Below are positions 1,879 to 52,834 of a DNA stretch of 55,051 nt, piece by piece. The notes below the pieces were generated by a model, which made no database searches, had not been told where the DNA came from, and worked only from the letters and a program-made list of their open reading frames with translations. Position 1 is the first letter of the stretch; the number at the start of each line of letters is the position of its first letter. The position numbers and the translations under genes are program-made. Source of the DNA: an uncultured virus (IMG/VR IMGVR_UViG_3300029258_001513) (Duplodnaviria; Heunggongvirae; Uroviricota; Caudoviricetes); IMG/VR virus record IMGVR_UViG_3300029258_001513. One strand, given 5' to 3'.

Positions 1879-1954
1879 GGGTGCGTAGGTCAATGGCAGA
1901 CCGAGGGGCTCTAACCCCCTGCGTTGCCGGTTCGAGTCCGGTCGCACCCCCCCA
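1879..1954 (+). tRNA. Amber suppressor tRNA, anticodon CUA
   Basis: GGGTGCG/CGCACCC acceptor, GGTC/GACC D arm, AGGGG-CTCTAAC-CCCCT anticodon arm, GCCGG-TTCGAGT-CCGGT T arm; one extra C before CCA. Confidence 0.9.
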
Positions 1955-5014: not shown

Positions 5015-5082
5015 GTTTCTGAAGAAAAGACGTGCGTCTGGTGGTCTCCCGTGTGTATAGTAGGGATGCTTGTGAGAAAGAT

Positions 5083-5110
5083 TCAGAATCTTGTGTTCCT
5101 CTTGCAATGA
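5083..5110 (+). promoter_or_regulatory. Phage promoter motif A
   Basis: TCAGAAT-N13-TGCAATGA. Confidence 0.75.
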
Positions 5111-5116
5111 GGGTAC

Positions 5117-5229
5117 AGGAGAAAATGATGTACTAGGGATTTACATAGCTGGCACGTGGTCCTCCGAGGGGACCGTTACACTGATTGGTGTCACACTGAT
5201 TAGCATAACGGTCATCAACCAAAGGAGGA
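5117..5229 (+). promoter_or_regulatory. Putative amber-sensing leader ORF / translational attenuator
   Basis: AGGAG RBS, ATG 5125, in-frame TAG at 5134 and 5146, TGA 5182; TCCTCC (5160-5165) complementary to downstream SD GGAGGA (5224-5229). Confidence 0.45.
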
Positions 5230-5233
5230 AATC

Positions 5234-5578
5234 ATGACCACGGCTACTATCGAACTGACCAAGACGCAGGTCGCACATCGCGAAGCCTGTGCATATCTCA
5301 AGGGCATTCTGTGCGGTTACGCTGACCGCAAGGGTCGTCCCTATCACTCCAAGCGGGAACCGTTCGAGTGGAGCCCGGCTTTTACGGCTGGCTTCAATGA
5401 GGGCAGGGACTCGTGGGCGAGTGCGGACGCCATTACCGGCACCCATATCATCCACAACAGGTTGCGTAACCGTCCCCCGCACGCGGGCGGTCACGGCTAC
5501 ACGGCTTGGGCTCGTGGCAACCTGAACATGTATCTCGGTGATTTGGCCGGGGAGTTGGAGGGCTTTCTCGATGAATAA
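5234..5578 (+). CDS. Hypothetical protein
   Basis: 114-aa ORF with GGAGGA RBS. Confidence 0.7.
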   Translation: MTTATIELTKTQVAHREACAYLKGILCGYADRKGRPYHSKREPFEWSPAFTAGFNEGRDSWASADAITGTHIIHNRLRNRPPHAGGHGYTAWARGNLNMYLGDLAGELEGFLDE

Positions 5579-5906
5579 GGCACTCTACATTCTCATCCGT
5601 CCCGAGTTGACGAAGAGCCAGAGGATTCCGCAGGCGTGTCATGCGATGGCGGAGTTCATGGGTGAATACGGTTAGGACGCCGATATTCAGGACTGGCTTA
5701 GGAATCACCGGACGATAATCTGCCTTCAGGCGACCGAGGAGCAGATGGGTGACATCGGTGACGCCCTGTGGAAACGGGGCGAAAACCGCTCGGCGGCGTT
5801 CATCGACAGCGACTTTCCCGAGGACTTTGGCTGGACGGCGATTGCCTTCCCGCCGATGGATAAGGAGGAGGGTCGCAAACTGTTCGGGCACCTTCGGCTT
5901 GCCTGA
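5571..5906 (+). CDS. Pth2-like peptidyl-tRNA hydrolase interrupted by in-frame TAG (5673-5675)
   Basis: LYILIRPEL..QACHAMAEF..*..W...IICL...F.D.D...GWTAIAFPP...LFGHLRL resembles the PTH2 family across the TAG; missed by the ORF track. Confidence 0.75.
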
Positions 5907-5954
5907 CAACGTGTGCCCGGCCTGCCTTCGGGTGGGTCGGGCATTCATTTTCAT

Positions 5955-6179
5955 GGTCACGGGATGCGTCGGGGCTCATACCCCCGTTCCACCGGCTTGA
6001 TACTTCGACGGAGTAGCTGAAGACGCCTCGTGAATCCCGTTATGGCGAAACGGGATGAGGCGGGATAGGTGAAAAGAGACGAGAGGAAGGCAGGGGTGAG
6101 CATCGTTTCCGAGTCTGTTTTCGCTTCGCCAAGCGTATTCAGACGGAGTTATCAGGTTCGAGTCCTGCCGTGACTACCA
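5955..6179 (+). ncRNA. tRNA-fMet-like RNA lacking a D arm, with ~165-nt insert
   Basis: GGTCACG/CGTGACT-ACCA ends, CGGGG-CTCATAC-CCCCG arm, CAGG-TTCGAGT-CCTG T arm. Confidence 0.6.
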
Positions 6180-6186
6180 CTTTCTT

Positions 6187-6214
6187 TCAGAATCCCGGAC
6201 GGCTCGTGCAATGA
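6187..6214 (+). promoter_or_regulatory. Phage promoter motif A
   Basis: TCAGAAT-N13-TGCAATGA before ATG 6221. Confidence 0.75.
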
Positions 6215-6220
6215 GGAAGC

Positions 6221-6559
6221 ATGAAAGAACTTGATGCGATACGTCAGTCGGAGGACATGAAGCGGCTTGTCTCCCTGACTTCCGAGGTGGAAGCTCTGAA
6301 GTGGAAGGTGACGGCTCAGGTTGAGGATGCTTGTGCGGTTTACGGGAAGCCGGGGGAGTTGCTGACGGATTGGGAGAAACGGCTGGATGCCGTGGAGCGG
6401 CTCGTTGAGCATGAGGACGTACAGGCTGTCTGGGATGACGGTAAGACGCAGACGGCGACGAACCCCTTGGGGTTCCTTCAGTTTGAGGTTCGGAGGGTAC
6501 GGAGGGCCATTGAGCAGCATCGGGAGATGGGGCTCAGTCGGTGTCCTCGAAAAAGTTGA
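6221..6559 (+). CDS. Hypothetical protein
   Basis: 112-aa ORF behind motif A. Confidence 0.7.
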   Translation: MKELDAIRQSEDMKRLVSLTSEVEALKWKVTAQVEDACAVYGKPGELLTDWEKRLDAVERLVEHEDVQAVWDDGKTQTATNPLGFLQFEVRRVRRAIEQHREMGLSRCPRKS

Positions 6560-9512: not shown

Positions 9513-9666
9513 GGGCAGTGCCAAGGTCGGCACCGTACTGGCGAAAGCCGATACCCCGGCGATAACCGAAAAGGGTCGCAACCTTACGGGTCGGGGATTG
9601 CCGGGGAACGGCATTCAGGCATACCGTGGTGCGGCATGATGAGTTCGACTCTCATACTGTCCATCA
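9513..9666 (+). ncRNA. tRNA-like RNA with G3:U70/A73 and anticodon loop replaced by a structured insert
   Basis: GGGCAGT/ACTGTCC-A, ATGAG-TTCGACT-CTCAT T arm, CCGTACT/GGTGCGG closing stem. Confidence 0.65.
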
Positions 9667-14087: not shown

Positions 14088-14114
14088 AGGTGTAGAATGA
14101 AGATGGAGGAGAGC

Positions 14115-14291
14115 ATGAAGAAAGCGGCTAAGAATGAGAAGGGATTCGGTTGTCACGATATCCCGTAGCAGCCTCAACGGCAGGATGCCTTGGACGACCA
14201 GTTGCGAGAGCTTACGATTGCTGGCAACAGGCTGGGGCTCTATGACGCCGTTGACGTGGTTCAGAGGCTCATAAAGAGTGGCAAGCGATGA
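14115..14291 (+). CDS. Small phage protein interrupted by in-frame TAG (14166-14168)
   Basis: GGAGGAG RBS; MKKAAKNEKGFGCHDIP*QPQRQDALDDQLRELTIAGNRLGLYDAVD...; TGA overlaps next ATG (ATGA). Confidence 0.6.
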
Positions 14292-22769: not shown

Positions 22770-23081
22770 ATGGCAGGAATCCAATGGCGTGAGGTAAGGG
22801 GCTACGAGTTTACCCCCGAAGAGGCTCAAGCGGCTTCCGATTTCTCGGAAATCGTGAATTTGCATGGTCTCGACCTTGAAGCGGCGTATAATCTGTTCAA
22901 AGCCAAGGGGACAACTCTGGGGGTTGGACAGCGGCTCCTCTTTGCCGAGAAGATACCTATTGACCGGGCGACCGTGCTTTTGCTTTGTGACCCTGACGAG
23001 CGTATCAGGGGTGTCGTGGAGAAGCGGGTCGCCGAACACAGGGAGCAGGAAAGTGGCGGAATCATCACAGCCCGAGTATGA
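22770..23081 (+). CDS. Hypothetical protein
   Basis: 103-aa ORF. Confidence 0.6.
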   Translation: MAGIQWREVRGYEFTPEEAQAASDFSEIVNLHGLDLEAAYNLFKAKGTTLGVGQRLLFAEKIPIDRATVLLLCDPDERIRGVVEKRVAEHREQESGGIITARV

Positions 23082-26000
23082 CAAGGCCAAGCTGAGGAAA
23101 GAACTCATCAAGGGCATTGTCCATCTTGCCCGGCACAAGGAGTTCTACGGGCACATTGTCCAGCAGTTCGAGAAGGTCTGGGTGTGTGGCAAGCATCGGA
23201 TAGAGACAGCCGCAGTCGGGCGTTTTCGCGGCGAGCGTTTCATCAAGATGTGGATGAACATGGATTTCTTTGCCGGTATCTTTGCCGAGAACACCCGTGA
23301 GCAGGCGTGGACATACATGCTGAACGTGCAGGAGCACGAAATCATCCATTGTTTTCCGAAGGGGACAATGGTTGGTGGCTCGTTTGTACCGATAGAAAAG
23401 ATGACTGAGGGAATGGCTATTGTGGGTTCTGATGGGGAAAGGCATGAGGCAGAGCGGGTTGAGTCTCGTCGGTACACAGGGGGTTTGGTGTCTATTAAGC
23501 CGATGGGGGTAATGCCTTTTAATGTGACGGACCATCATCGCATTCTTGTGGCTGACATTGGCTGGAAAACCATCAACACCGATAAGCCAAGACGGAATGT
23601 GCGCTTAATACGGAACGTTGGCTGGAAGGAATCCCAAGATGTAAAGAAGGGGGATTGGCTTGCTGTTCCTCGGATGAAGGGACACAGGGAAGATGTCGAG
23701 ATAGACGTGTCTCAATATATGAAGGGGAACAAATGGAGTCTCCCTTGGGGGGTGCGAGTGGGCCGGATTCCTCTGAATGAGGATGTTGCGTGGTTGCTTG
23801 GGTATTATTGTGCCGAAGGTAGTGCAAGTTGCTCTACGGGGCAAGTGATATTCTCAATGCACGAGAAAGAGCGAGTTTCTAATGGCTCTGAAGTGGCCCG
23901 AATTGTTGAGGGATGGGGTCTTGGGGGTAAGCCTTTCTATCAGCGAGGAGAAGGTCATTCGTTGAGGATTGTTTTCAATTCCGTTGTAATGGCTCGGATG
24001 CTTCGGGATATGGCGGGGTACCACGCTAACACCAAGGCGGTTCCTCCAGAAGTGTTTTGGCATCGTGATGATGGTATTGTAAAGGCTTTTCTTCGTGGAT
24101 ATTTCGATGGAGATGGCGCAACGGAGAGCGAGGTGTTCTCGTCAGCGAGTGTGTCCAGCACATTAGCCTGTCAGCTTCAAATGATGTCTGCCCGTATCGG
24201 AGCATGGATGAACATGCACTTTGATGAGCTTTCTAGGCAGCCTCCAAGGGTCATTGTCAGTGGGAAGCCGAGAAAACTGAAGGACCAATACCGTTTGCAT
24301 TCTGGTGGCGATGATATCCGTGTGTTGCTCGGATATAGTCCCGTGAGAAAGAAGGGCAGGGTAACACGGCATCATGTCATCAGTGAAGACTTCATCTTTG
24401 TTCCTGTAAAAGAAGTGTCCCGGCAAGAGAAGTGGTCGGGGACGGTCTATAACCTTCGGAGTCCGACAAAGGATTATCTTGTTCACAATGTCGTAGTTCA
24501 TAATTGTGTGTTCGGGCACCTCTTCCTGACGTTCGAGGACAAGACTCGTGGTGGCGTGGCGGTGGATTGTGTGGTCAACGGGATTATGAATCCGCAGGAC
24601 GATAAGAAATTGATGCCGGGGAATTACGTCCATCCTGCCCATTATGGATTTCCGCTGGACAAATCCGCCATGTGGTACTATACACATCTTCGGGAAAACC
24701 CGCGTTTCCAGCAGCAGTGCAAGTCCGGGGCTTTCGGGGCTGGTGGTGCCCTGTCTCACATCATGTCCGGGCACAGTGCGTGGGATGACGTGAAGGACGA
24801 CCCTGTTGCTCAGGAGTTTGCCAAGGATATTGTTCGCAAGGCTAAAGACCTTTGCAACAAGCAGTACGGGAACATTCCCGGTGCGGTTCAGCAGCAGATA
24901 GAGGAACTGCTCAAGCGTAAGAAGGCGATTGTTCCGTGGGGACGGGTTCTCCGAATGTTCTGTGCCTCGGCACAGGAGTCTATACTGGACTACACGGTCA
25001 AGAGGGTGAGTAGACGGTACGGGACTCGTCCGGGGACACGGAAGGGCGATGTGCTCAAGCTGGCTGTGGCTATTGACACGTCGGGATGTTTTGTTGGAGA
25101 AACGTTGGTCCCAATGGCAAATGGAGGAATCAAACGAATTGACGATGTGGTGGAGGGAGATATGGTCGTGTCGTCGGCGTTTGGCGGTTGCCAAGTGCCC
25201 AGAAAATGTACCAATGTATTTGAAAAAGAAGCAACGGAGCTTGTCTCTGTGACAGCGGACAAGGGATTTTCATTTACCTGTACCCCAAATCACCGAATCT
25301 TCGTTTTGCGGCCAGAAGTCGGGCCGAAGCGTATTCGTAAATATGATAAACTTAGACGGGGAAAGATGATGAATGAGCTTCGAGAAAGCTCTGTTGTTGA
25401 AATTCCGGCAGAAGAGCTTCAGCCGGGAGACTGGCTGATAACAACACATGGTTCTGCACCTTGGATGACTCCGTTAGAGGGCTCTCTTCTACCAATGACG
25501 GATGCTCAGTCTGGAATGTATGTTACAGAGTCGGATATTTCGGAAGCTGATAGGCTAAAGAGGCAAAAGGGGGTATCCTATCGGAAACAGCACAGGGACG
25601 GAATGATGCGTTTTCATTATGCGTCAATCTTGGAAGCGAAGCGGCGAGGTGTCAGCAAAACGCTTCCGGTAATACCGAAGCAACCGACGGATGATTTTTG
25701 TCAGATTGTTGGATATGCGATTGGTGATGGGCATTTGTCCGATGCAACTTTTGTGGTAACGGACGAGTCTCGTAGTCGTCTTGATCTATACAATGACTTG
25801 ATGGTAGGCGTTTTCGGTTTGACGGGAGATATCAAGGAGTGGGATCGTAGAAGGCTTGTTGTAAACTCGAAGCCGCTAGTGGAATGGTGGAAGGACAGTT
25901 TACCAGAGACCGTTGTCCGTTCTCCGGACAGGACAATTCCGCAGTCTTTGACTCGTTTGCCGGATAGCAAGATTGCTGCACTCCTTCGGGGATTGTTTGA

Positions 26001-26805
26001 CGCAGAGGGTTCTGTTGGTCCGCATTATGTTAACTTTGCCAATTCGTCCAGAAGTCTACATGAACAGATTCATTTGCTTCTCCTCCGGCTTGGAATAGAA
26101 TCAACCATTTGTGATTCAAATGTGGATGACAGGGAGATTAGCGGGCACGTGATAAAAGGGGGAGGGCACTGGCGATTAAGCATTTACGGATTGGAGAATC
26201 TTGAAAGATTTGAAGAGATTGTTGGATTCGGGTGTCAGGAAAAGGCTATGAAGCTGGCGCGAGTCGTAGAGTCAATTGGCTTGTATCACAACAATGGTTC
26301 ATTCCCCTACACTGAACATCAAAGGCTGGTACAAGTGAGGGCTGTTGAGAAGACCAAATTGTCGCAACCAGTTTTGGTTTATGACCTTGAAATTGAGGGA
26401 GAGCACAATTACATGGCGAATGGTGTTGTGGTTCATAATTCTATCAGTGATGAGCAACTCGTATTGTTCTGGAACGAGATAAACTGGGTGCGGCGTAATG
26501 GTGCCGAGGTATGGATTTACGAATGTGATACGCAAATCTCTCCCCGGTCGCCATTCAAGTATCGTGGCAAGTGGGATGGTACGGTTCACGGTCGCGGGGG
26601 CACGGACCTTGAGCCGCCTCTCAAGGAATGCGAGGGCAAGTATGATGCTCTCATCTACTTTACGGATTTCTATGCTCCGCAGATTGAAACCCAGTATCGG
26701 ATTCCGATTCTGTGGGTTCTGACGACGGAGTTGGAAAAGGATGCTTACCCCTATCGGTGGGGAAAGCACATCAAGATAGACGACGGCAAAGCCGTGGCAG
26801 CATGA
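23053..26805 (+). CDS. DUF2201-like metallopeptidase + vWA protein with two inteins
   Basis: HEIIH|CVFGH zincin motif, AIDTSG|S MIDAS, GRGGTD, IYFTD; probable GTG start 23053. Confidence 0.85.
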   Translation: MAESSQPEYDKAKLRKELIKGIVHLARHKEFYGHIVQQFEKVWVCGKHRIETAAVGRFRGERFIKMWMNMDFFAGIFAENTREQAWTYMLNVQEHEIIHCFPKGTMVGGSFVPIEKMTEGMAIVGSDGERHEAERVESRRYTGGLVSIKPMGVMPFNVTDHHRILVADIGWKTINTDKPRRNVRLIRNVGWKESQDVKKGDWLAVPRMKGHREDVEIDVSQYMKGNKWSLPWGVRVGRIPLNEDVAWLLGYYCAEGSASCSTGQVIFSMHEKERVSNGSEVARIVEGWGLGGKPFYQRGEGHSLRIVFNSVVMARMLRDMAGYHANTKAVPPEVFWHRDDGIVKAFLRGYFDGDGATESEVFSSASVSSTLACQLQMMSARIGAWMNMHFDELSRQPPRVIVSGKPRKLKDQYRLHSGGDDIRVLLGYSPVRKKGRVTRHHVISEDFIFVPVKEVSRQEKWSGTVYNLRSPTKDYLVHNVVVHNCVFGHLFLTFEDKTRGGVAVDCVVNGIMNPQDDKKLMPGNYVHPAHYGFPLDKSAMWYYTHLRENPRFQQQCKSGAFGAGGALSHIMSGHSAWDDVKDDPVAQEFAKDIVRKAKDLCNKQYGNIPGAVQQQIEELLKRKKAIVPWGRVLRMFCASAQESILDYTVKRVSRRYGTRPGTRKGDVLKLAVAIDTSGCFVGETLVPMANGGIKRIDDVVEGDMVVSSAFGGCQVPRKCTNVFEKEATELVSVTADKGFSFTCTPNHRIFVLRPEVGPKRIRKYDKLRRGKMMNELRESSVVEIPAEELQPGDWLITTHGSAPWMTPLEGSLLPMTDAQSGMYVTESDISEADRLKRQKGVSYRKQHRDGMMRFHYASILEAKRRGVSKTLPVIPKQPTDDFCQIVGYAIGDGHLSDATFVVTDESRSRLDLYNDLMVGVFGLTGDIKEWDRRRLVVNSKPLVEWWKDSLPETVVRSPDRTIPQSLTRLPDSKIAALLRGLFDAEGSVGPHYVNFANSSRSLHEQIHLLLLRLGIESTICDSNVDDREISGHVIKGGGHWRLSIYGLENLERFEEIVGFGCQEKAMKLARVVESIGLYHNNGSFPYTEHQRLVQVRAVEKTKLSQPVLVYDLEIEGEHNYMANGVVVHNSISDEQLVLFWNEINWVRRNGAEVWIYECDTQISPRSPFKYRGKWDGTVHGRGGTDLEPPLKECEGKYDALIYFTDFYAPQIETQYRIPILWVLTTELEKDAYPYRWGKHIKIDDGKAVAA
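23350..24504 (+). mobile_element. Intein with LAGLIDADG endonuclease
   Basis: CFPKGT...LLGYYCAEG...FLRGYFDGDG...VVHN|C. Confidence 0.9.
25087..26439 (+). mobile_element. Intein with LAGLIDADG endonuclease
   Basis: CFVGET...TPNH...IVGYAIGDG...LLRGLFDAEG...VVHN|S. Confidence 0.9.
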
Positions 26806-32127: not shown

Positions 32128-33972
32128 ATGGCCCGAGACAACATCATTGCAGAGCTTGCCAAGGGATTCATCTCGGGCAGCAATGGCGATATTGCGGACA
32201 TCGTCACGTTTGTTGAGGCTCCGTGGGGTCTCAATATGCGTCTCCTGCCCGTCCAGAAATTCATCCTGAAGACCTTTTACGGTCTTCCTCTGGACAACAA
32301 AGACGCCTATATCCCCGTTTACAACCTCACCAACGAGCATATTCTCTACACTTTCACCGAGAGTGGCTTCCTCAATTGGCTTTACAGCGAAGGTCGCTGC
32401 AATACCAACGAAACTGAGGGAAAGAACTTTCACGAACTCGTTCTTTCCGTGGGACGCCGTGGGTCGAAGTCGAGTATGGCGGCTTTTATCGCCAACTACG
32501 AGATATACAAGCTCGTGCGTCGAGGCGACCCGGTAAAGCACTACGGCTTCAACCCCGGTGCTCAGTTCTACATCCTTAACGTGGCTCCTACCGACGAACA
32601 GGCGGCTATTGTTTATGACATGATGCAAAATCAGTCCGGTGAATGTCCCTACATGCGGGACCGTTCCATTCACAACACGATGACCTACTTCGACATCCAG
32701 ACAGATGCGGATTTGTCGAGGAGGGAACGTAAATCCAAAGCGAGCATTGTAGTCCTGTCGGGAGGCTGTTCGTCGAACGCTTTGCGTGGTCGAAATGCCA
32801 TTGTCGTCATCATGGACGAGATGGCTTTCTTCTTGGACAATGCCGGACGCTTCTCGGGAACAGAGGTTTACAGGGCTTTGACACCCTCCGTGGCGTCCTT
32901 TATGGACGACGGCAAGGTAATCTGTATCAGTAGCCCCTATGCCAAGTATGGTGCTTTCTATGACAGGTTCTTGCAGTCGTTCCATGAAACGGACATCACG
33001 CTGTCGTTCAAGATGTACAGTGCGATGGTCAACCCGGAAAACGTGTCACCGTCCATTCTGAAAGCTGCCAAGCGACGTGACCGGGCTTCGTTCATGTGTG
33101 AGTACGGTGCCGAGTTCAGTGATGCGGTTGTGGCGTGGGTTGATGACGAGGAGGAATTTAAGCGGTGTATCACGTTGCCCGCTGCATCGGCTAAAGGTGT
33201 TCCCGACACCAAGTATTTCATGGGTATCGACCTTGGATTCAAGAACGACGGTTCCGCGATTGCCATTGTTCATCGAGACCGCAAGACAGGGAAAATCATT
33301 CTTGACCATGCCGACGTGTGGTTCTCGGGAGCCTCGGACGTATGGGACTTCGAGGATAGTATCTACAGTTCATGTCGGAAGTACGCCAATCAAGACCTGT
33401 TGAGAATGGCTGATATTGTGAGGGAGATTGCGGAGTTGGTCAGGTGGTTCCCCTTAAAGGCGGGCGTTTTCGACCAGAGCAACGGCTACGCTTTGGCTGA
33501 ACTGGTGAAGGCGAAGGGATTCAAGCAGATTGAGATGGAGAACTTCACCGATAAGAAGAATCACGAGGTTTACGAGTTGACCAAACGGCTTTATGCGGAG
33601 CGGCTCGTGGAGTTGTACGACCATCCTGTTCTTGTCCCGGAGGTTCTGACTTTGGAGGGTGAGAGGCGCAGTAAGAACATCATCATTGTCAGGGCTCCGA
33701 ATCGCAGGGGTGCCCACGATGATATTTCTGATGCGTTCGCACGGGCAGTGTGGCTTTGCTACAAGACATTCAAGAAGCAGGCTCCTCATATTTCCACGGG
33801 TGCTGGAGGGGCGATGGCGGGAATGGGGGCAATAGGGCTGTACAAGGGTCCGCCCGAACTTCGAGTAAAGCAGCAGACGTTGCGTTCGTTCCAGTTGGAC
33901 AGGTTCAAGAAGCATGGGGAACATCCGAGGTTGGGGGCTCCTCGTCGGCGGGCTCCCGGAGCGGTGAAGTAG
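32128..33972 (+). CDS. terL: Terminase large subunit
   Basis: GRRGSKS Walker A, IMDEMA Walker B, ISSP, EYGAEF, GIDLG and HDDISDA nuclease motifs. Confidence 0.9.
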   Translation: MARDNIIAELAKGFISGSNGDIADIVTFVEAPWGLNMRLLPVQKFILKTFYGLPLDNKDAYIPVYNLTNEHILYTFTESGFLNWLYSEGRCNTNETEGKNFHELVLSVGRRGSKSSMAAFIANYEIYKLVRRGDPVKHYGFNPGAQFYILNVAPTDEQAAIVYDMMQNQSGECPYMRDRSIHNTMTYFDIQTDADLSRRERKSKASIVVLSGGCSSNALRGRNAIVVIMDEMAFFLDNAGRFSGTEVYRALTPSVASFMDDGKVICISSPYAKYGAFYDRFLQSFHETDITLSFKMYSAMVNPENVSPSILKAAKRRDRASFMCEYGAEFSDAVVAWVDDEEEFKRCITLPAASAKGVPDTKYFMGIDLGFKNDGSAIAIVHRDRKTGKIILDHADVWFSGASDVWDFEDSIYSSCRKYANQDLLRMADIVREIAELVRWFPLKAGVFDQSNGYALAELVKAKGFKQIEMENFTDKKNHEVYELTKRLYAERLVELYDHPVLVPEVLTLEGERRSKNIIIVRAPNRRGAHDDISDAFARAVWLCYKTFKKQAPHISTGAGGAMAGMGAIGLYKGPPELRVKQQTLRSFQLDRFKKHGEHPRLGAPRRRAPGAVK

Positions 33973-33975
33973 AAC

Positions 33976-34629
33976 ATGGACGAGCAACTCATAGCACGGG
34001 AGATTTTGACCGTGGCGAAGAGCCTGTTGGCGGTTCGTGGTCCGTATGTGGATTCTGTCATTGACGGCATCAGGGTTACTCAGGTCCAAACTGAAAACTC
34101 TCGGTCCCGTGCTACCATTCGGGGTAACAAGCTCCTTATCAAGTGGGGCACTGATGCCCCGGAGGGGAGCTATATGCGGAAGCGGTACTTGCCTAAATGG
34201 GTGAGTTGGGCAAAGCGGAAGATTGTTCGGAAGAGTGAACGGGTTGAGCAGAAGAAGGAGTGGGCTCGGACGGTCGAGGACGGCTATTCGGTCTACGACC
34301 TTGAGGGTAAGGACGAGGTGGCAGCCATTCTTTCAAAGGTGGAGCGTGATATTCGTCCGGTCCTCCGAGAGTTCGACTTGAAATATACGACGCTGAAGGA
34401 GTCGGTGGCCGAGGGTTCACTGGGTTTCAATCGTGGCAGACGAGTCATTGCTCTGAATATCAGGCAGAAGCGGTTTCCGATGAAGTTGCGTAAGTACAGT
34501 GCCGTTATGCGAACGATGCTTCACGAGTTGGCTCACCTTCGGCACATGAATCACGGGCCGGATTTCAAGATGTTCGAGATGGAGTTGGTCGAGTGGGCAA
34601 GGGGCAAGGGAATCTATCGTCCGGGTTGA
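33976..34629 (+). CDS. WLM/YgjP-like zinc metallopeptidase
   Basis: LGFN..IALNIR..TMLHELAHLRHMNHGPDF. Confidence 0.8.
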   Translation: MDEQLIAREILTVAKSLLAVRGPYVDSVIDGIRVTQVQTENSRSRATIRGNKLLIKWGTDAPEGSYMRKRYLPKWVSWAKRKIVRKSERVEQKKEWARTVEDGYSVYDLEGKDEVAAILSKVERDIRPVLREFDLKYTTLKESVAEGSLGFNRGRRVIALNIRQKRFPMKLRKYSAVMRTMLHELAHLRHMNHGPDFKMFEMELVEWARGKGIYRPG

Positions 34630-34630
34630 T

Positions 34631-35764
34631 ATGAGCACACAAAGAATATGCAGAATAGCCTTGGGGCTTGTGGCAAGCACTCGGACTGCGAAAGCCATGA
34701 CACCGGAGGAGCAGACCCGGCGGAAGAAGAAGACCGAATCTGTCCGTAAACTTGCCCAGCAGATACACAAGCTGCGTCGGAAAGTCACGCAGGACATGAA
34801 GTCCGATGACGAGAAGACCCGATTGACGGCTCTGGCGGTTGCCTTGATAGACAGGACAGCGGAACGTGTTGGGAACGAGGAATCTGCGAAGGATGGACAT
34901 GTGGGTGTCACGGGTTTCAAGCGTGGTCAACTCACGGTAGAAGGCAACACTGTTACGTTGAAGTACACGGGCAAGAGTGGAGTGAAGCAGGAGAAGACGT
35001 TCACGGACAAGCTGGTTGCCAAGCTGCTCAAGGAGTGCCGTAACAACTGCAAGGGGGATGAAAGTCCGATTCTGGTCACGTCCGATGGTTTCAAGGTCAA
35101 GGCGGACAAGGTGAACAGGTATCTCCGGGACTTCGATATCACGGCTAAGGACATCCGGGGGTATGCGGCGAACACCCTTGTCTATGATATGCTGAAACGG
35201 AGCAAGACTCCTTCCGACCCGGACGAACGCAAGAAGCAGTTCTGCGAGGTGCTGAAAGCGGTGGCTGAAAAGGTGGGGCATCAGCAGGCGACTCTCAAGA
35301 AACACTATCTGCTTCCGGGGGTCGAGGAGTCTTACGTCAAGAGCGGCAGGGTCAAGAAGGTAAAGAATGCTTCATCTGGGCTGATGGCGGTAAGGCTTGC
35401 CGTGGAGAATGATGGATACTGCCGTATGGTTGTTGAGTACGCCAAGGAAGCCATTCCCGTGTTGGAGGCTGCCTATGAGGAACATATTGGACCGCTTCCG
35501 GCTGTAGTCCGGTTCCGGGTACAGGTCAACGATTGGGATTTGCCGGAGGGGAAGGTGGGTTCGTTTTTGCATCCTGACCCTGAAAATGGCAGGGAAAAGG
35601 GAGTGCTCACGCTGAGTCCTGAGAATTTCCGTTCAGACAAGTGGAAGCAGGTGGTCAAGCACGAGTTGATTCATGCGTTGCTTGGAAAGGATGCACCCGA
35701 ACATGGAGAATTCTTTGATATTCTTGCCAATAGTATGAAGATACCTGTGGAGTACCGAGACTGA
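34631..35764 (+). CDS. DNA topoisomerase IB with C-terminal HExxH domain
   Basis: RVGN, GKSGV, AKDIR, GH..TLKKHY catalytic residues; HELIHALL..H at the C-terminus. Confidence 0.85.
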   Translation: MSTQRICRIALGLVASTRTAKAMTPEEQTRRKKKTESVRKLAQQIHKLRRKVTQDMKSDDEKTRLTALAVALIDRTAERVGNEESAKDGHVGVTGFKRGQLTVEGNTVTLKYTGKSGVKQEKTFTDKLVAKLLKECRNNCKGDESPILVTSDGFKVKADKVNRYLRDFDITAKDIRGYAANTLVYDMLKRSKTPSDPDERKKQFCEVLKAVAEKVGHQQATLKKHYLLPGVEESYVKSGRVKKVKNASSGLMAVRLAVENDGYCRMVVEYAKEAIPVLEAAYEEHIGPLPAVVRFRVQVNDWDLPEGKVGSFLHPDPENGREKGVLTLSPENFRSDKWKQVVKHELIHALLGKDAPEHGEFFDILANSMKIPVEYRD

Positions 35765-37229: not shown

Positions 37230-40200
37230 ATGGCTGATGAAATCAAAAGAACGCCAGTACCGAGCCCTACCAAGGGAGGGGTAAAGAGGCCGGGAGTCAA
37301 GGTTGGCAAGGCTGACCCCGTAAAGGGTCGTATCGCCAAGAAGGCTGTTGGAGCCGGTGGATTCGGGATGCAGAGACAAGCGGGCATGATGCTTGACCTG
37401 TCACAAGACGCCTCGTATTACCAGACTGGCTACGCTCTTGAGAGCTATCGTACTTCGTATGCCTATGGACTGGGCAACCGGACGGGCACGTATGACGTGC
37501 CACGGTATTTCGTCCAGATGAACCAGCAGAACGGCGGTATCCTCTACTGGCCGGTCACTCTCAAAGAACGGTATTCATGGTACCGATACTGGGCACGGTG
37601 CTTTACCAATCCCAATGTGATGATTACCCGTCGAGACGGGACGGAAGCACCTTTGTATTCCTTCAAGCCCGGCGATGAAGTTGTCAATGCCGAGGGTGGA
37701 TTTACGGAGGTTGACGAGGTCACAACTCAGAAATATGAGGGCGAAGTTGTACGTCTCGACGTGGAGGCAAATCGTTGGAACGACTTGGAGGTCACCCCTG
37801 AACATCCGTTCAAGGTGCTTCGTTCGTCTCATATCGTAAGACACCATCATCGGGTCAAGGACGAACAGGGCGTTGAGCATCGGGAAACGAGGGTGGAAAT
37901 TGACTATTCGCCGGAATGGGTGGAAGCCAAGGATATCTGTGTTGGGGACTGCCTTATTGTACCGGGTACAACTATTTGTCCTGACGGACGGTTGTCTGTC
38001 GAGCGTGCAAGACTTGTCGGGTACTACCTTGCAGAAGGGAATGTCAATTTTGACGAGGGAAGACCGAGGGCTGTTACTTGGAGCCTTGGCTCGCATGAGT
38101 CGGACTTGATTGCTGAAATAAAGGCTCTTTGTGTGGCCGAGGTTGGCAAAGAGCCTTCTGAATACAACTACCCGGATAGAGAGTCTTTGACCACTTTGAG
38201 GCTTCACGATTCTGAGTTCGCATCGTGGATGCTTGAGAAGTGCGGCACGGGTTCTCGTTCTAAGAAGTTGTCCTATGACATTTTTCACGCCACTGATGAA
38301 ACCACCAAACATATTGTTGGTTGTTGGCTCAATGGGGATGGGAGCCGAGATAGTGCCGAGGCAGAAGGACAGGTGGACGGCACCACTTGTTCTCAAGATT
38401 TGGCCCATCAGTTGTATTTGATGATGGTTCGTATCGGACTGGCTCCTGCGAAGAGGCACAAGATTTCCTGTCGTTACGGTTCGTCTGAAGAGATTGGCCC
38501 CGCATGGAGAATCTATCTCCCGCCCATGTATGCGAATCAAGTATCGGCGTACACGAAATGGGATGGGGTTCAGAAATCTCATCGTCATAGGAAGTACAAT
38601 CACGTCCATGATGGCACTGGCAATATGCTTTTGCCGGTGAGGGGGGTGTCTAAGAGGTATTTCGATGGTTTGATTTGGAACCTCTCGACTCGTGGGGAAT
38701 CCTACGACGAGAGAACATTCCTCGTCTATGGGATGGCCACGCACAACACCGATGCCTACATCGGTCGGGCGTTGGAACTCCTTTCCGATTTGCCCATGTC
38801 GAAGCTCACTCTGACGATGCCAAAAGTCACGAAGAAGCTCGACAAGAAGAAGCGGGAAAGCATTCTGCGGTTCTTCAAATACCAGATGGAGGTTATTGGC
38901 GGGTTCGAGACCTGTCAGAGCATCCTCTGGGAGTGGAACATGATAGGGAACTGCTTCAAGGGTGACACACAAATCCTTACTCCAGAGGGGATTGTACCAA
39001 TCTCAGATATAAGAGAAGGTGATAAGGTTCTTGACGCATCTGGAGAGTTTTCACAAGTGGTAAAAATCGCGAGGAGGACGGTATCAGAACGTCTAGTCTC
39101 CATCGGCGTTGCAGGTATGAATGGTGTGGATTTCTCTCCGACGAATGAACATCCAGTATTCATTCTCAGAGGAGAAGACGAGTGTATGGTGAAGTCGGAG
39201 GAAGTAAGAAGGGGTGATTGGATAGGTGTTGCATCCAAAATCGAGACAAGAGATGTTGATATTGTAAATTGGCGCGATGATGTATCTAGTAGACTATCTG
39301 CGTTCTATAAGTCTGTTAATTCAGATAGTAATAGCACTGTTTGCTCTTACGAGATTCCTACGGGAACAAATGTGGGAACGAATGAGGTTAGAAGTGCACT
39401 TTTGTCTTGGTTGTCAGGATTGGACGAACCTGTTGTGATGGACTGTGCAGAGGTAGCACTTGAGATTGGTATTTCTGATTCGGTTCGAGTAAGGTCCGTT
39501 GCTTATGCTCTTCGTAAGAGGGGAGATATTAGAGCAGATAGAACAAGTAAGGGTCGCATAGGTGGAAGCTCCATAAGATGGTTTCCTCTGGAGTCTGAAC
39601 CTGAATATGGACATACGAGGGATAAAACAATAAGTTTCTCTCAAACTTCAAATACTTCATTTGATGTAGATGAAGACTTTATGTATTTGCTTGGTTATTG
39701 GCTAGGAGACGGTTGTCTTTGGAGGTCAAAGAACAAGTTTTCAAAGGAGTTTGAAGGTCTCGATATCTGCATATCGGAGAAAGAGTCTGAATTATTTAAG
39801 CGTGTTGATTCAGTAGCTCGTAGCGTGTTCGGGTGTGACGCTGTAACGAATGAACCCTTTATTGATGACTCAATGAATCATATTGTGGTGGCTGACCCTT
39901 TGATGTCATCTTGGTGGTCAACACAATTCGGTTGTGGATGTAAGACTAAAAAGATACCGGGATGGGTAATGCAGCTTCCAGAAGAGAAGCTGCTTTGGCT
40001 ACTTCGTGGAATGATTGACAGTGATGGGTATGTATCTGTTCGCGAGTCGGGTGGCATTGCTGCTATGGTTGGTACAAACAAAGAGCTTATGTTGCAATTG
40101 TTCCATATCATGCTTTCTTGCGATATTCCTGCTTTATTTAGTAAGCAGAAGGGAAGAAGGCAGGGGAAGACGAGCATCGTCAGGACGGAATCTTCCGATA

Positions 40201-41825
40201 TGTACGTGGTAAGTATTGGAGTTCGGGGGTATTTTGAAAAACTGGTCAAGGGGTGTCATAAGGAGACTATTGTTGAATGGTCAGAAATGGAATCCGTCAA
40301 TCCTACATTCAGAAAAAAGGATGGCTTTTATTACTACCGTGTGGACTCTGTGGATAGGCCATTCTATTCGGGGTATGTCTATAACTTTGAGGTAAAGGGT
40401 AGTCATACCTATTGCGCTAACGGGATTCGCACTCATAACTGTTATATGTTCCACGAGTGGGACGATGAGAAGAAAATGTGGAGTCGGGCGGTCATGCTTC
40501 CTCCCGAGGAAGTTGGTGTTTTTGATTACCCGTTCCAGCAGAACAAGCGTGTCGAGTATCGTCCCGAGCGGCTTATCAAGCTGATTAAGGACAGTGTCGT
40601 ACATGGTACTGGAACGGGGGAGGCTTCGCAGGTTCCGGGAGCGAGTACGGAGTGCGACCGGGCTGACATGCCCTCAAAGATTCTTGAGGGTATCCCGGAC
40701 GAACTCGTGGATATGGTGAGGAATGAGGGTTGTATCGTCATGGATTCCGACCCCATGACCGGCTCTTTTGTTCACCACATTGCACGTCGCAAGTCGCCCT
40801 ACATGGATTTGGGAGCATCGGTTCTTGAGCGTGTGCTTGTTCCCATGCTTCAGAAGGAGCACTTCCGCTATACGCAACTCTCGCTGGCTTCCCGGAACAT
40901 GACGCCGAAGAATATCGTGACGGCTCCGGGACTTCTTCGGGATGAACTGGATGACCTGCGGACACAGGTTGACCTGAGCTATCTTGACCCCGAGTACACC
41001 ATTGTTACCAACTACGAGGTGACATGGGAACAGATTGGGGCTCAGGACAGGCTGCTTGACCTTGACAGGGAGTATGAACGTATCGAGCGTGAGGTTTTCG
41101 CGGCAATGGGGGTCACTCGCGAGTTGTTGACTGGTGAGAGCACGTACAGTGGCAGCAAAATCACGGTCGATATCCTGAACACAATGTTCTTGCTCACCCG
41201 CGAAGTGCTCCAGAACTACATCGAGCGTAGTTTGTTCCTTCCGATTTGCGAGGCACACGGCTGGTATGACGAGGACGAGAACGGTATCAAGGAATACTGG
41301 TATCCGAAGGTTGGCTTCAACCGTCTGACCATTCGTGATAACGCGGAAGTCTTCGATTCGCTGTTCCAGCTTTACCAGAAGGGCAGCATCCCCGTGGACA
41401 TCATCTACGAGTTGTTCAATCTCAACTCTGACGAGATTGATTCTAAGCTCATGGAAGACCTGTTCAGCGTCAAGGATGCCAACTTCAACCGCATCATCGA
41501 GGAAGCCAGTGGCGAGATTGGACGGGTCATTGTGGAAAACAGTGACCTTGCGGAAAAGGTTGCCAGATATCTTGGTCTGCAATACCAGAAGCCTGCCGAG
41601 GAAGGGGAAGAGGGTGATGGCGGCTTCGGTGGCGGCTTCGGTGGCGGCTTCGGTGAAGAGGAACAAGGCGGGGAAGAAGATGAGGGTGGCTTCGGAGAGC
41701 AGTCTGGTGGTTTGTCCGAGGACGATGCCGAATCCATGGCTCAGACCATCATGGAGAATCTCCCCGGAGACGCGACCATGGAAGACGCTGAGCGTATTGT
41801 GGAGGAAGTGGGAGCAAGTGTGTAA
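37230..41825 (+). CDS. Portal protein with two inteins
   Basis: Extein has ALELLSDLPMS, EWNMIGN|CY, HIARRKSPY..GAS, AAMGV..LL.GE.TYS; acidic Gly-rich tail; near TerL. Confidence 0.75.
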   Translation: MADEIKRTPVPSPTKGGVKRPGVKVGKADPVKGRIAKKAVGAGGFGMQRQAGMMLDLSQDASYYQTGYALESYRTSYAYGLGNRTGTYDVPRYFVQMNQQNGGILYWPVTLKERYSWYRYWARCFTNPNVMITRRDGTEAPLYSFKPGDEVVNAEGGFTEVDEVTTQKYEGEVVRLDVEANRWNDLEVTPEHPFKVLRSSHIVRHHHRVKDEQGVEHRETRVEIDYSPEWVEAKDICVGDCLIVPGTTICPDGRLSVERARLVGYYLAEGNVNFDEGRPRAVTWSLGSHESDLIAEIKALCVAEVGKEPSEYNYPDRESLTTLRLHDSEFASWMLEKCGTGSRSKKLSYDIFHATDETTKHIVGCWLNGDGSRDSAEAEGQVDGTTCSQDLAHQLYLMMVRIGLAPAKRHKISCRYGSSEEIGPAWRIYLPPMYANQVSAYTKWDGVQKSHRHRKYNHVHDGTGNMLLPVRGVSKRYFDGLIWNLSTRGESYDERTFLVYGMATHNTDAYIGRALELLSDLPMSKLTLTMPKVTKKLDKKKRESILRFFKYQMEVIGGFETCQSILWEWNMIGNCFKGDTQILTPEGIVPISDIREGDKVLDASGEFSQVVKIARRTVSERLVSIGVAGMNGVDFSPTNEHPVFILRGEDECMVKSEEVRRGDWIGVASKIETRDVDIVNWRDDVSSRLSAFYKSVNSDSNSTVCSYEIPTGTNVGTNEVRSALLSWLSGLDEPVVMDCAEVALEIGISDSVRVRSVAYALRKRGDIRADRTSKGRIGGSSIRWFPLESEPEYGHTRDKTISFSQTSNTSFDVDEDFMYLLGYWLGDGCLWRSKNKFSKEFEGLDICISEKESELFKRVDSVARSVFGCDAVTNEPFIDDSMNHIVVADPLMSSWWSTQFGCGCKTKKIPGWVMQLPEEKLLWLLRGMIDSDGYVSVRESGGIAAMVGTNKELMLQLFHIMLSCDIPALFSKQKGRRQGKTSIVRTESSDMYVVSIGVRGYFEKLVKGCHKETIVEWSEMESVNPTFRKKDGFYYYRVDSVDRPFYSGYVYNFEVKGSHTYCANGIRTHNCYMFHEWDDEKKMWSRAVMLPPEEVGVFDYPFQQNKRVEYRPERLIKLIKDSVVHGTGTGEASQVPGASTECDRADMPSKILEGIPDELVDMVRNEGCIVMDSDPMTGSFVHHIARRKSPYMDLGASVLERVLVPMLQKEHFRYTQLSLASRNMTPKNIVTAPGLLRDELDDLRTQVDLSYLDPEYTIVTNYEVTWEQIGAQDRLLDLDREYERIEREVFAAMGVTRELLTGESTYSGSKITVDILNTMFLLTREVLQNYIERSLFLPICEAHGWYDEDENGIKEYWYPKVGFNRLTIRDNAEVFDSLFQLYQKGSIPVDIIYELFNLNSDEIDSKLMEDLFSVKDANFNRIIEEASGEIGRVIVENSDLAEKVARYLGLQYQKPAEEGEEGDGGFGGGFGGGFGEEEQGGEEDEGGFGEQSGGLSEDDAESMAQTIMENLPGDATMEDAERIVEEVGASV
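37599..38747 (+). mobile_element. Intein with LAGLIDADG endonuclease
   Basis: CFTNP...TPEHP...LVGYYLAEG...WLNGDG...ATHN|T. Confidence 0.9.
38952..40439 (+). mobile_element. Intein with LAGLIDADG endonuclease
   Basis: CFKGDT...TNEHP...LLGYWLGDG...LLRGMIDSDG...RTHN|C; AT-rich. Confidence 0.9.
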
Positions 41826-45312: not shown

Positions 45313-45340
45313 GGCGGTAATCCGGGTTGATTGGGTGGCG

Positions 45341-48199
45341 ATGAGCGAACGAAGCATAGTCGAGAGATTGCTTGTATCGGCGGACGAGAAGTTCGTCCCG
45401 CCGGAGTCTGCCCAGAACGCTGCCAAGAAAGCCCTTCGCTGGAAAGAGGAGCATGGCGATGAAGTCAAAGCCATGACTCGGACAGGGTGGACTCGTGCTC
45501 GCCAGTTGGCGAACGGTGACGCTCTTTCATACGATGTCGTCAAAAGGATGGCTCAATTCAAGAGGCACCAGAAAAATAGTCGGGTCGCTCCCAAATACCG
45601 CAAGGAGCCGTGGAAGGATAACGGCTACGTGGCTTGGTGTGTGACGGGCGATACCCTCATTGCCTTGGCGGATGGCTCTGAAATGGAGATATGCGATATT
45701 GTTGACGGCAAGATGGATGTTGACGTTTTGTCGTATAACGAGGACACGGGGAGAGTAGAACCTCGTCGTGTCCTCGACTGGATGGTTGGGGAGTCGTCAG
45801 TGGGAGACTTCCTGTGTGTGGGTAAGGGGAAACAGAATCGTCTTCACATTTCGTCTAAGACGTTCATCAAGGTTACGCCAGAGCATGAGGTTTTTTCGGA
45901 GGGGGAATGGGTTCCCGCATCAGACATGGGTGGAGAACGTGGTGCCTATTTGCACAGATGGTTTGATGATATCGGTGAGCAGGTCTTAATCGGGACTTTG
46001 CTCGGCGATGCTAGTATCGAGGCTGGAAGATTGTCATTCTCTCATGGCAGCAGTCAACGCGGTTATGCGGAAGAGAAGGCAAGAATACTTGGGTGCAAAT
46101 ATGTGGGAAGTTATGTTGGAAACTATGGAGATTCCAGATGTCAAGTGTTTCGCTCTAAGGTTATGAATGGCCTGAAAGAAATGAGGAACGAGTGGTATGC
46201 ACCAAGCAAGACAGTGGGTGGCGACATTCTCGAAAAAGTTGGAGACATAGCTCTGGCTTTTTGGTTTATGGATGATGGAAGTCTGCATCGTGGGAAGACT
46301 GTTCGTCCAACATACTATTACAGGCTTCACACAGAGGGATTTGACGATGAGAGCCTGTGTCGAATTATTGCTTGGTTCAACAGACAGGGCTTAGAAGTTA
46401 AAGCCGTGTCAAGGCGTAACACATGCGGGGCTTACTTGAGATTTACCCCCTCTAGCAGTGCCGAAATAAGCAGGAGGATATCTCCATACGTCCATGAGAG
46501 TATGGCGTACAAGGTTATCCATCCATGTGAGTACGGGTTGCGAAGATATAAGCCAGAGATTCGATACTGCATTTGTCATGAGATTGTTTCAAAACATGTC
46601 AAGTGCGAGGATATGAGTCACAGCTTTAAGAAGGCGGGCAGATTTCATAGGAGATACAACATCGCGGTAGAGGGCAATAATAACTACTTTGCAAATGGAC
46701 TTCTGGTTCATAACTGCGGTTGGGGCGGCTCATCCGGTATCGAGTGGGCTATCGGCGTAGTAAACAGGGTCGAGAAAAAGAAGCAGTCGTCCATCGTGGA
46801 CAGGCTGGTGTCTGATTTTGTCGCGGCTGACACTTTGGCAACACCGCTTGAGGAAGAAACAGTAAATGATGTTTTTGACCGAGCCGTTGCTATTGCTTCT
46901 CGGCACGTCAGGGGGTTGCGAGGAAAAATCAAAGTCAAGGCAGTCAGGCGTGGCACATCTGTCCCGGCTGCGTCGTGTGTCCCTTCTAAGGGGATTATTT
47001 TGGCCAATCTGGACAAGTTGCTTGTCGGGGGTCGAGTCCCTCGTGTTGTTGGGGGTGTCTATCCCTTTTTGCACGAGATAGGTCACTTCGTGTTTTCGAG
47101 ATTATTGCCACTGCAAGTGCGAGCTTGGTACGAATCGGAATTCGATGCCGCAGGTGAGTTTGCTTCTTCTTATGGAAGGAAGAGCCCCCATGAGGATTTT
47201 TCAGAGTCGTTTGCTTACTATTTGGCGGGAAAGCCAATTCCGTCTCAAGCCGAAGAAAGGTTGACTTTTGCTTTGAGTGGAAGGATTGCGGCTCGCGGTC
47301 AGCAGGTTGTTCGCAAGGACAAGGACTTGATGCAGGATACGGGTGGTACATCCAAGGGACGTGACCGGGAACCGCACATCAAGCCCCCGCGTGACGACGT
47401 TAAGGAGCGGTATCGTGACAGGCGGTTGGTTCCCGAGAAGATTGACAAGGATACGAATGAGGACAATGACCGTCCCGTCAAGAAGCCGAACCGTCGTCCG
47501 CAGGCGAGACGTATGCGTTGGGCGGCGATACACAAGATGAGGGTGTTTGATTTCGACGACACATTGGTTTCCTCGGAGAGTTCTGTGCGTGTTAAGCACG
47601 AGGATGGGGAAGTGACGGATTTGGACAGTGCGGCATTTGCCTACTTCGTTCCGTCAGGCGGTGACAAGATTGACTTTACCGATTTCAACAACGTAACGAA
47701 GCCACGGGTCATCAAGAAGAACATGGATGCCTTCAAGGAAGCCGTGGCGGACAAGGATGCCAGAGCGGTTGTCCTGACAGCGAGACCCAAGGGGTCGGCT
47801 TCTGCCGTGAAGAAGTTTCTGAGCAGTTTGGGGATAGACAACGTGGATGTCGTGGCGTTGCAGTCCAGTGACCCGATGGACAAGACCCGGTGGATAGAGG
47901 GCAATATGGAGGGAATCGACGACATCGAGTTCACCGATGATAGCTCGAAGAACGTGGAAGCCGTGGACACGTTGAAGGGCAAGGTGAAAAGGTTAGAGAC
48001 GCACAATCCTCCCCATCCTACGGATGCCGATTATGAGGGTGAGCCTGTGGAAGAAACGTTCGAGTCCGATGCTTCGACGACGGTTGAGATTGAGAAGAAA
48101 GGACCGTCGGCACCGAGCCGGTGGTGGGATACTCAAACTCCCGAGTTCCAGAAGCAGTATTGTTTGAAGCATCCTGAATCCAAGTATTGCGGGGGTTGA
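45341..48199 (+). CDS. Multidomain protein: phage head-associated domain (with intein), zincin, HAD-like phosphatase
   Basis: ARQLANG..VAW|CGWGG; HEIGH..YG..SPHEDFSESF; VFDFDDTL..LTAR..FTDDS.KN. Confidence 0.7.
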   Translation: MSERSIVERLLVSADEKFVPPESAQNAAKKALRWKEEHGDEVKAMTRTGWTRARQLANGDALSYDVVKRMAQFKRHQKNSRVAPKYRKEPWKDNGYVAWCVTGDTLIALADGSEMEICDIVDGKMDVDVLSYNEDTGRVEPRRVLDWMVGESSVGDFLCVGKGKQNRLHISSKTFIKVTPEHEVFSEGEWVPASDMGGERGAYLHRWFDDIGEQVLIGTLLGDASIEAGRLSFSHGSSQRGYAEEKARILGCKYVGSYVGNYGDSRCQVFRSKVMNGLKEMRNEWYAPSKTVGGDILEKVGDIALAFWFMDDGSLHRGKTVRPTYYYRLHTEGFDDESLCRIIAWFNRQGLEVKAVSRRNTCGAYLRFTPSSSAEISRRISPYVHESMAYKVIHPCEYGLRRYKPEIRYCICHEIVSKHVKCEDMSHSFKKAGRFHRRYNIAVEGNNNYFANGLLVHNCGWGGSSGIEWAIGVVNRVEKKKQSSIVDRLVSDFVAADTLATPLEEETVNDVFDRAVAIASRHVRGLRGKIKVKAVRRGTSVPAASCVPSKGIILANLDKLLVGGRVPRVVGGVYPFLHEIGHFVFSRLLPLQVRAWYESEFDAAGEFASSYGRKSPHEDFSESFAYYLAGKPIPSQAEERLTFALSGRIAARGQQVVRKDKDLMQDTGGTSKGRDREPHIKPPRDDVKERYRDRRLVPEKIDKDTNEDNDRPVKKPNRRPQARRMRWAAIHKMRVFDFDDTLVSSESSVRVKHEDGEVTDLDSAAFAYFVPSGGDKIDFTDFNNVTKPRVIKKNMDAFKEAVADKDARAVVLTARPKGSASAVKKFLSSLGIDNVDVVALQSSDPMDKTRWIEGNMEGIDDIEFTDDSSKNVEAVDTLKGKVKRLETHNPPHPTDADYEGEPVEETFESDASTTVEIEKKGPSAPSRWWDTQTPEFQKQYCLKHPESKYCGG
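45638..46714 (+). mobile_element. Intein with LAGLIDADG endonuclease
   Basis: CVTGDT...TPEH...IGTLLGDA...AFWFMDDG...LVHN|C. Confidence 0.9.
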
Positions 48200-52825: not shown

Positions 52826-52834
52826 GAGACTGAG

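Follow-up and report, generated by a model that had tools for sequence, protein, structure and literature searches.

A conserved phage leader with two in-frame ambers, proposed to gate a downstream operon by amber read-through

Through the analysis of a 55,051-nucleotide stretch of phage DNA (referred to here as the window), we identified a short leader that is a real, conserved and apparently as yet unpublished element of probable regulatory function, in which arrest-peptide attenuation would be joined to a new kind of input. We consider it very likely that amber read-through gates the operon behind this leader in some form. The full model, in which the leader is a translational attenuator that senses such read-through, is likely to be correct, judging by its conservation and its modeled RNA folds. 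The input is most likely the phage's own tRNA(CUA), which is encoded 3 kb upstream.

We propose the following course of events. Transcription would start at a repeated promoter-like motif. In the free mRNA, the leader codons for Ala-Arg-Gly-Pro-Pro are predicted to pair, in a conserved manner, with the Shine-Dalgarno sequence (SD) and first codons of the next gene, ORF 5234, which would keep that gene off. Leader ribosomes would normally terminate at UAG 5134 or UAG 5146, short of the anti-SD; when charged tRNA(CUA), probably carrying Gln, is at hand, some ribosomes would read both UAGs and stall on RGP/P. The stalled ribosome would then cover the anti-SD and free the SD, allowing translation of ORF 5234 and then of an overlapping Pth2-fold gene, for which one further read-through (at codon 35) would be needed. 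With the ambers acting in series, the output should be steep: that of ORF 5234 should rise roughly with the square of suppression and that of Pth2 roughly with its cube. The purpose, which is the least certain step, may be the recycling of peptidyl-tRNA when suppression drives ribosomes past genuine TAG stops, with stalls and drop-off as the result.

The window comes from a large tailed phage, with a terminase at 32128, a portal at 37230, a tRNA cluster and, at 50077, a gene of the CCA-adding/poly(A) polymerase type. It also holds three intein-bearing genes (22864-26805, the portal gene 37230-41825, and 45335-48199) and a type IB topoisomerase gene (34631-35764). Near-identical DNA is present in sediment and seawater metagenomes (no RNA data set is listed among these sets), and the longest contig encoding the same ORF 5234 protein measures 190 kb. 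Contigs from three runs (X2, X5 and X6) cover the leader as well as the Pth2 amber and show 0 differences there, which argues that neither is a sequencing error, with the caveat to this agreement that X2 is possibly the source sample of the window. A variable gene cassette was seen nearby: the gene at 6221-6559 is absent from the X2 and X7 contigs, in which 12 letters follow the promoter motif in place of window positions 6214-6552.

The leader ORF and its conservation

The leader ORF (5125-5184, + strand; MMY*GFT*LARGPPRGPLH) comprises 19 codons with in-frame ambers at 5134-5136 and 5146-5148 and ends in TGA; an AGGAG ribosome-binding site precedes it at 5117-5121. A preliminary description of this DNA had proposed an amber-sensing leader here, and each of the elements it named could be located (AGGAG, ATG ATG TAC TAG...TGA, TCCTCC at 5160-5165, GGAGGA at 5224-5229 and ATG at 5234), as could the pairing strands GACCGTTA (5171-5178) and TAACGGTC (5206-5213). 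It had also put the leader directly after a promoter motif, and this too holds: the bipartite promoter-like motif TCAGAAT-N-YTCKTGCAATGARG occupies 5083..5113 (+ strand) and is enriched in the window, with 10 matches at one mismatch or less (9 of them on the + strand) against 0.51 expected. Nine copies stand at 809, 5099, 6203, 9491, 13165, 14076, 15692, 17784 and 19235. The motif is a putative promoter. All four relatives with the corresponding DNA carry a TGCAAT-containing version upstream of the leader, the variant in these being CGGAT or CAGAAT some 12 to 14 nt 5' of TGCAAT. A second motif, GTGTATAG, was noted at window position 5053.

The operon may end at an intrinsic-terminator-like hairpin of 14 pairs (5913..5954, + strand), weak by itself as a signal, with one such site found against 1.1 in shuffles. 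Between this terminator and the next promoter lie about 250 nt without a gene (5930-6180), the 3' end of which has tRNA-like T-arm sequence; an Rfam search of this stretch gave no match. Elsewhere, directly 3' of another copy of the promoter motif, ARAGORN calls a tmRNA (9513-9663), a call to which Rfam gives no support.

A metagenome scan with an ORF 5234 alignment returned seven loci, two of which (L002 and L003) are the same phage and five of which (L004 to L008) are distinct relatives, independent of one another and all of one lineage, with ORF 5234 identities of 41 to 66%. The leader is retained in all five relatives, and purine-rich sites lie 5' of its ATG in L004, L005, L006 and L008. 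Conservation of the TAGs, on which the preliminary description had staked its proposal, is complete as far as the contigs reach: amber 1 is present in 4/4 relatives that extend to it and amber 2 in all four complete leaders, while the cut end of L007 begins at the AG of amber 2. After amber 2, all five continue directly with a hydrophobic residue and Ala-Arg-Gly-Pro-Pro.

The leader varies in a manner characteristic of coding DNA. Third codon positions account for seven of the eight variable columns in the 10 core codons of the four gap-free leaders, and 22 of the 27 pairwise codon differences among these are synonymous. Leader indels preserve the frame. The spacing from amber to amber is 3, 3, 4, 5 or 24 codons, in frame and stop-free in every case, and the two codons from amber 2 to RGPP are constant in 6/6 leaders; the distance from RGPP to the next stop is variable (0 to 15 codons). 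Taken as an alignment pattern, this variation is that of a translated peptide. Individual leaders have features of their own: L005 has a 21-codon insertion between the ambers (5848-5907) that keeps the frame, lacks a stop and forms its own hairpin; in L004 a third TAG (336-338) comes directly after RGPP; and in L008 a TGA (888-890) does so, giving Pro-Pro-stop.

The pattern ATG..TAG..TAG-xx-R[AG]PP occurs once in both strands of the window, and a relaxed form of it in 2 of 400 shuffled strands. Scans of viral contigs with the leader pattern gave 8 + 2 loci, all 10 of which lie within or antisense to the coding sequence of unrelated viruses and were dismissed as chance. No true relative emerged from searches of viral contigs with ORF 5234, Pth2 or their alignments, from a promoter-pattern search of the same contigs, or from searches of genome contigs (L001, from the viral contigs, is a chance match of 17 residues), and a BLAST search of the leader against cultured phages returned just three short chance matches.

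RNA folding and the RGPP motif

The region 5105-5245 folds with a z score of -4.05, none of 200 shuffles being as stable, and the anti-SD:SD pairing together with a long hairpin forms its minimum-energy fold. Leader folds reach z scores of -2.6 to -5.6 in 6/6 leaders. In each of these, the long inner hairpin (5171..5213, + strand) is enclosed, in the minimum-energy fold, by pairing between the Ala-Arg-Gly-Pro-Pro codons and the SD plus first codons of ORF 5234; the hairpin begins some 11 nt from the proline codon predicted to lie in the P site. The SD (5224-5229) and the first ORF 5234 codons (together 5224..5246, + strand) are predicted to be paired with the leader in this closed state. Paired cells make up 90.6% of 160, against 23 to 53% in slid controls, the structure having been derived from the same sequences; across leaders, the outer helix is 100% and the SD helix 83% paired. 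Covariation is weak, with double changes in 3 of 27 pairs (23 of 500 shuffles being as high) and an overall score that ranks at 146 of 500. The start of ORF 5234 is the second-hardest to open of 50 listed starts, one of which (4382) was wrongly entered, and its pairing with the leader may underlie the invariant Met-Thr-Thr-Ala start of the ORF 5234 protein.

A strong conserved fold is equally what one would expect of a noncoding structured RNA or riboswitch in which the mini-ORF is a coincidence. We find this highly improbable: the leader varies in a codon pattern and keeps its frame through indels, and an Rfam search over it gave no gathering-level match (best E, 3.6).

Modeled ribosomes point to an attenuator that opens when the ribosome reaches RGPP. 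In free RNA the next start is predicted to be closed in 6/6 leaders; it is predicted to stay closed with a ribosome at either UAG and to open with one on RGPP. When only the RNA 3' of the modeled ribosome was folded (six loci by five footprints), placing the ribosome at Pro1 rather than at amber 2 left the SD easier to open in all 30 locus-by-footprint cases, the opening cost at +11 falling from 7.3 to 2.1 kcal/mol in the window and from 8.8 to 1.0 kcal/mol in L006. A separate model of the SD alone gave the same direction in 6/6. A wider model (whole start region, footprint -15..+13, 5' RNA included) failed to separate amber 2 from Pro1 in the window (8.9 versus 8.8) or L008 (5.3 versus 5.3) and separated them little in L005 (5.2 versus 4.3); the cleaner model, with 3' RNA only, was chosen after this poor separation had been seen. 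The idea that a ribosome must get past both UAGs to free the next SD is thus supported by the modeled-ribosome folding, albeit more weakly under the wider footprint.

Once freed, the 3' arm of the inner hairpin can, under wide footprints, also re-pair with the start codon region, and read-through might on that account lower expression; alternatively, the leader might act on transcription or RNA stability. We hold such an opposite or different output to be very unlikely, as the free RNA is already closed in 6/6 leaders, the leader contains no terminator-like site, and the Pth2 gene depends on read-through too, in keeping with an on-switch.

The element that would make the ribosome pause is the RGPP arrest-type motif (5155..5166, + strand), which the preliminary description had overlooked. 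Its codons contain the anti-SD (5160-5165) as well as a portion of the strand that base-pairs to the ORF 5234 start. RGPP is invariant in 6/6 leaders (5/5 relatives), and no other R[AG]PP occurs in any of the window's three + frames. According to a study of such motifs (PMC12992588), RGPP is the most robust arrest sequence in several contexts, arrest of the RAPP type resists EF-P, and the ribosome stalls with motif codons 3 and 4 in its P and A sites. The same study describes RGPP as the most avoided tetrapeptide in many bacterial phyla and proteomes, and for this reason its retention in the leader suggests that it is put to use. It also states that RAPP-like motifs need a suitable upstream region, the motif alone not being enough; work cited in another report (PMC10951233) found a minimal RxPP sufficient. 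The published cases were tested as long fusions, and the leader chain is only 13 residues long. By analogy with published RGPP arrest, we infer that ribosomes would arrest at the leader RGP/P.

The gate could also work without arrest. In this reading, which is that of the preliminary description, a passing ribosome melts the long helix and a local hairpin (5158..5174, + strand) kinetically traps the anti-SD. Such a hairpin can form in 6/6 leaders, at -6 to -11.5 kcal/mol, and appears before any other structure in short nascent transcripts; moreover, because the RGPP codons are at the same time a pairing strand, part of their conservation has an explanation at the level of RNA. We nevertheless judge this version unlikely. 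Synonymous third-position changes in the Ala, Gly and Pro codons preserve the peptide, covariation in the local hairpin is no better than in shuffles (256 of 500), and the retention of so avoided a tetrapeptide suggests use, as noted above. Forcing the hairpin in the window gives a structure 8.3 kcal/mol less stable than the main fold. The two alternative pairings that had been proposed as the switch are, then, both formable, but the local hairpin would not be the sole opener: a stalled ribosome is likeliest, given that the anti-SD is encoded by the arrest motif itself, with the hairpin perhaps stabilizing the open state.

The putatively regulated genes and the probable meanings of TAG

The first putatively regulated gene, ORF 5234 (5234..5578, + strand), encodes a 114-residue, all-helical protein (model pLDDT, 85). 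A search with it gave 10 matches including itself, and no family or fold match was found in Pfam, PHROG, PDB sequences, Foldseek or VIA (best Z, 4.4). A score of 0.85 against DUF2623 in the ESM Atlas is a lead only. A likeness to ribosome modulation factor was considered and dropped, the comparison with E. coli Rmf giving a probability of 0.2%.

The second gene (5571..5906, + strand) overlaps the end of ORF 5234 and is split by an amber at 5673-5675 (codon 35); its read-through product has 111 residues. The operon had been described as a Pth2 operon, and the profile and fold bear this out: the read-through protein scores 27.1 bits against Pfam PTH2 (cutoff, 23) and matches Pth2/Bit1 in Foldseek (E, 6.3e-7; TM, 0.78 to 0.83). 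What had been missed is that the gene is itself amber-split. The amber occupies the same codon in 4/4 relatives with the gene, at protein identities of 59 to 68%. In all four relatives that have both genes, ORF 5234 lies between the leader and Pth2, and an arrangement with the leader joined directly to Pth2 was discarded. Among 150 family representatives, judged from protein sequences rather than DNA, 12 are C-terminal pieces that begin with the nearest Met or Val downstream of the amber position, and one member (P0125) ends exactly before it, which suggests that the amber split extends more widely in the family than these relatives. A 110-residue member from an 856-bp contig (P0002) clusters with a 62-residue C-terminal piece from an 80-kb contig. 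The catalytic residues of archaeal Pth2 are Lys, Asp and Thr. Of these, the Asp aligns in the phage protein; Gln stands at the Lys position, next to a Lys and an Arg, and a gap takes the place of the Thr. Gln21, His24, Asp81 and Thr89 hardly vary across the phage family. The Pth2-fold protein is, on this alignment, a possible peptidyl-tRNA hydrolase that has no obvious match to the Lys and Thr.

TAG is still a stop in this phage, since it ends 13 of the 42 listed genes of the window and the terminal stops of orthologs interchange among TAA, TAG and TGA, which internal ambers never do (the codon tally of L004, being out of register, was left out of this comparison). A scan for coding signal on both sides of TAG gave eight candidates, and two, 5673 and 14166, are real internal ambers; the other six proved to be gene junctions, tRNA or intergenic DNA. 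Only four internal ambers in the 55 kb are well supported, two of them those of the leader, and neither the terminase nor the portal has any. The terminase (32128-34629) and the gene at 52370-53719 both terminate in a TAG that shares its frame with the gene that follows (extensions of 218 and 297 codons, respectively), and suppression there would give fusions.

The amber at 14166 lies in a second amber-split small gene (14097..14291, + strand), which follows a copy of the promoter motif and the stop of which overlaps the next ATG. It aligns to a Gln that is invariant in 5/5 homologous proteins; the codon is CAA and CAG in L018 and L019, and the amber was seen in the window only. The evidence for Gln comes from this one gene. 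Gln at Pth2 position 35 of database homologs was dropped as proof, because gene callers may have translated TAG as Gln, as the clustering of P0002 with a C-terminal piece suggests.

A tRNA of the amber suppressor type (anticodon CUA) is encoded at 1879..1952 (+ strand), 3.2 kb upstream of the leader, with a canonical cloverleaf and 59.6 bits on the general tRNA model. A CUA tRNA also lies 2.9 to 4.1 kb upstream of the leader in both relatives with enough DNA (L005 and L006). These tRNAs (window, 1879-1952; L005, 1653-1727; L006, 2934-3011) lie away from the main tRNA cluster, and their bodies differ clearly from one another; that of the window has no encoded CCA in register. The ORF after the window's CUA tRNA ends in a short tandem duplication with two in-frame TAGs (2120-2150). 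Taking together the use of TAG as a true stop, the Gln-aligned amber at 14166 and the linked tRNA(CUA), TAG most likely has two meanings in this phage, stop and Gln.

The name that ARAGORN gives the tRNA, "Pyl," might be taken to mean that the ambers encode pyrrolysine, and one could also imagine TAG to be fully reassigned in phage or host. Both ideas are extremely improbable. The label appears to follow the anticodon alone, the tRNA scores well on the general model and folds canonically, and the amber at 14166 aligns to Gln; as for reassignment, TAG ends many genes and swaps with TAA and TGA.

The operon had been expected to report on either suppression or release-factor status, two inputs that sequence alone cannot separate; of the two, suppression is the better fit to the presence of a cognate tRNA(CUA) and to the alignment of amber 14166 with Gln. 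Were the input instead a shortage of release factor 1 or a general failure of termination, with near-cognate read-through in place of the phage tRNA, the leader could look the same, and with 13 of 42 listed genes ending in TAG the state of RF1 matters to the phage. We nonetheless think this distinctly unlikely. A cognate tRNA(CUA) lies near the leader in the window and in both informative relatives, three serial ambers would yield almost no Pth2 at near-cognate rates, and the scan of window proteins turned up no release-factor gene.

If suppression by the phage tRNA is the input, the locus may be a natural genetic-code sensor, a proposal that falls somewhat short of being our expectation. TAG would be kept as the genome-wide stop and a few conserved ambers would serve as logic gates, so that suppressor tRNA activity drives a steep two-gene switch. 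ORF 5234 might then be a code-switch effector (acting, e.g., on RF1, tRNA charging or the ribosome) that gives feedback, and the amber-split Pth2 might clean up after suppression.

Relation to known systems

Published work on how phages time a change in stop-codon meaning relies on the distribution of in-frame stops among genes. With a 120-nt leader proposed to report amber read-through, both the timing and the monitoring of such a change become testable in a plain reporter; if the model is true, the leader offers a direct readout of how phages time a genetic-code switch. It would further mean that a phage classed as using the standard code can regulate by means of a few ambers, which lie in genes cut short by annotation or discarded as pseudogenes, and it would give the orphan suppressor tRNAs of such phages a role. 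The leader may also be of use as a compact natural part for suppression-dependent expression. The locus adds a Pth2-fold target that is amber-split and, from a third gene, evidence for Gln.

Recoded phages carry a suppressor tRNA(CUA) and read TAG as Gln, and this has been proposed to time gene expression (bioRxiv 10.1101/2021.08.26.457843; PMC9523058). The window phage likewise has a tRNA(CUA) and a TAG aligned to Gln. However, in-frame stops in recoded phages are spread through structural and lysis genes, whereas TAG is a common true stop in the window phage; the genome-wide pattern of code 15, in which TAG is no stop and lies in frame through many structural genes, is not seen in the window. 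Within the text available of the first report (bioRxiv 10.1101/2021.08.26.457843), "uORF" or "leader" occurs 0 times. A full-text literature search, assessed by titles and the starts of abstracts and with subscription papers mostly outside its scope, turned up no natural amber-gated arrest leader.

Phage Pth2 (Pfam PF01981; phrog_1866 and phrog_3668) is a fold of large and jumbo phages for which peptidyl-tRNA recycling in ribosome rescue has been proposed (PMC7824862). Unlike the known examples, the window gene is split by a conserved amber and lies behind a probably amber-gated leader, and its activity is putative.

The closest likeness is to the RAPP/RGPP arrest peptides, which include ApdA, ApdP, ApcA, SecM (RAGP), the RQH family, CruR and uORFs of Streptomyces lividans (PMC12992588, PMC10987492, PMC10951233). 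For SecM and one RQH member, a stalled ribosome was shown to disrupt a stem that hides the next SD (PMC10987492). Like these, the leader is a small upstream ORF with an RxPP core near its end, and its arrest site overlaps a predicted SD-hiding structure (less clearly so in one fold model). It differs in being viral, in having 14 residues to the motif in place of about 100 or more, and in lacking a signal or membrane segment. Compared with the substrates that monitor Sec or YidC (SecM, ApdA/P and ApcA), the 19-codon leader has no N-terminal localization signal and no downstream sec or yidC gene. Its input would lie in whether ribosomes get beyond two ambers to the motif, in contrast to arrest that is released by a pulling force or by metal.

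Stop codons serve as sensors in bacterial genes as well. In prfB, RF2 is sensed through a frameshift inside its own gene, and TnaC stalls at its own stop with tryptophan and acts through Rho. The phage leader resembles both in that a stop codon would act as a sensor of termination; unlike either, it would use read-through to reach an arrest motif.
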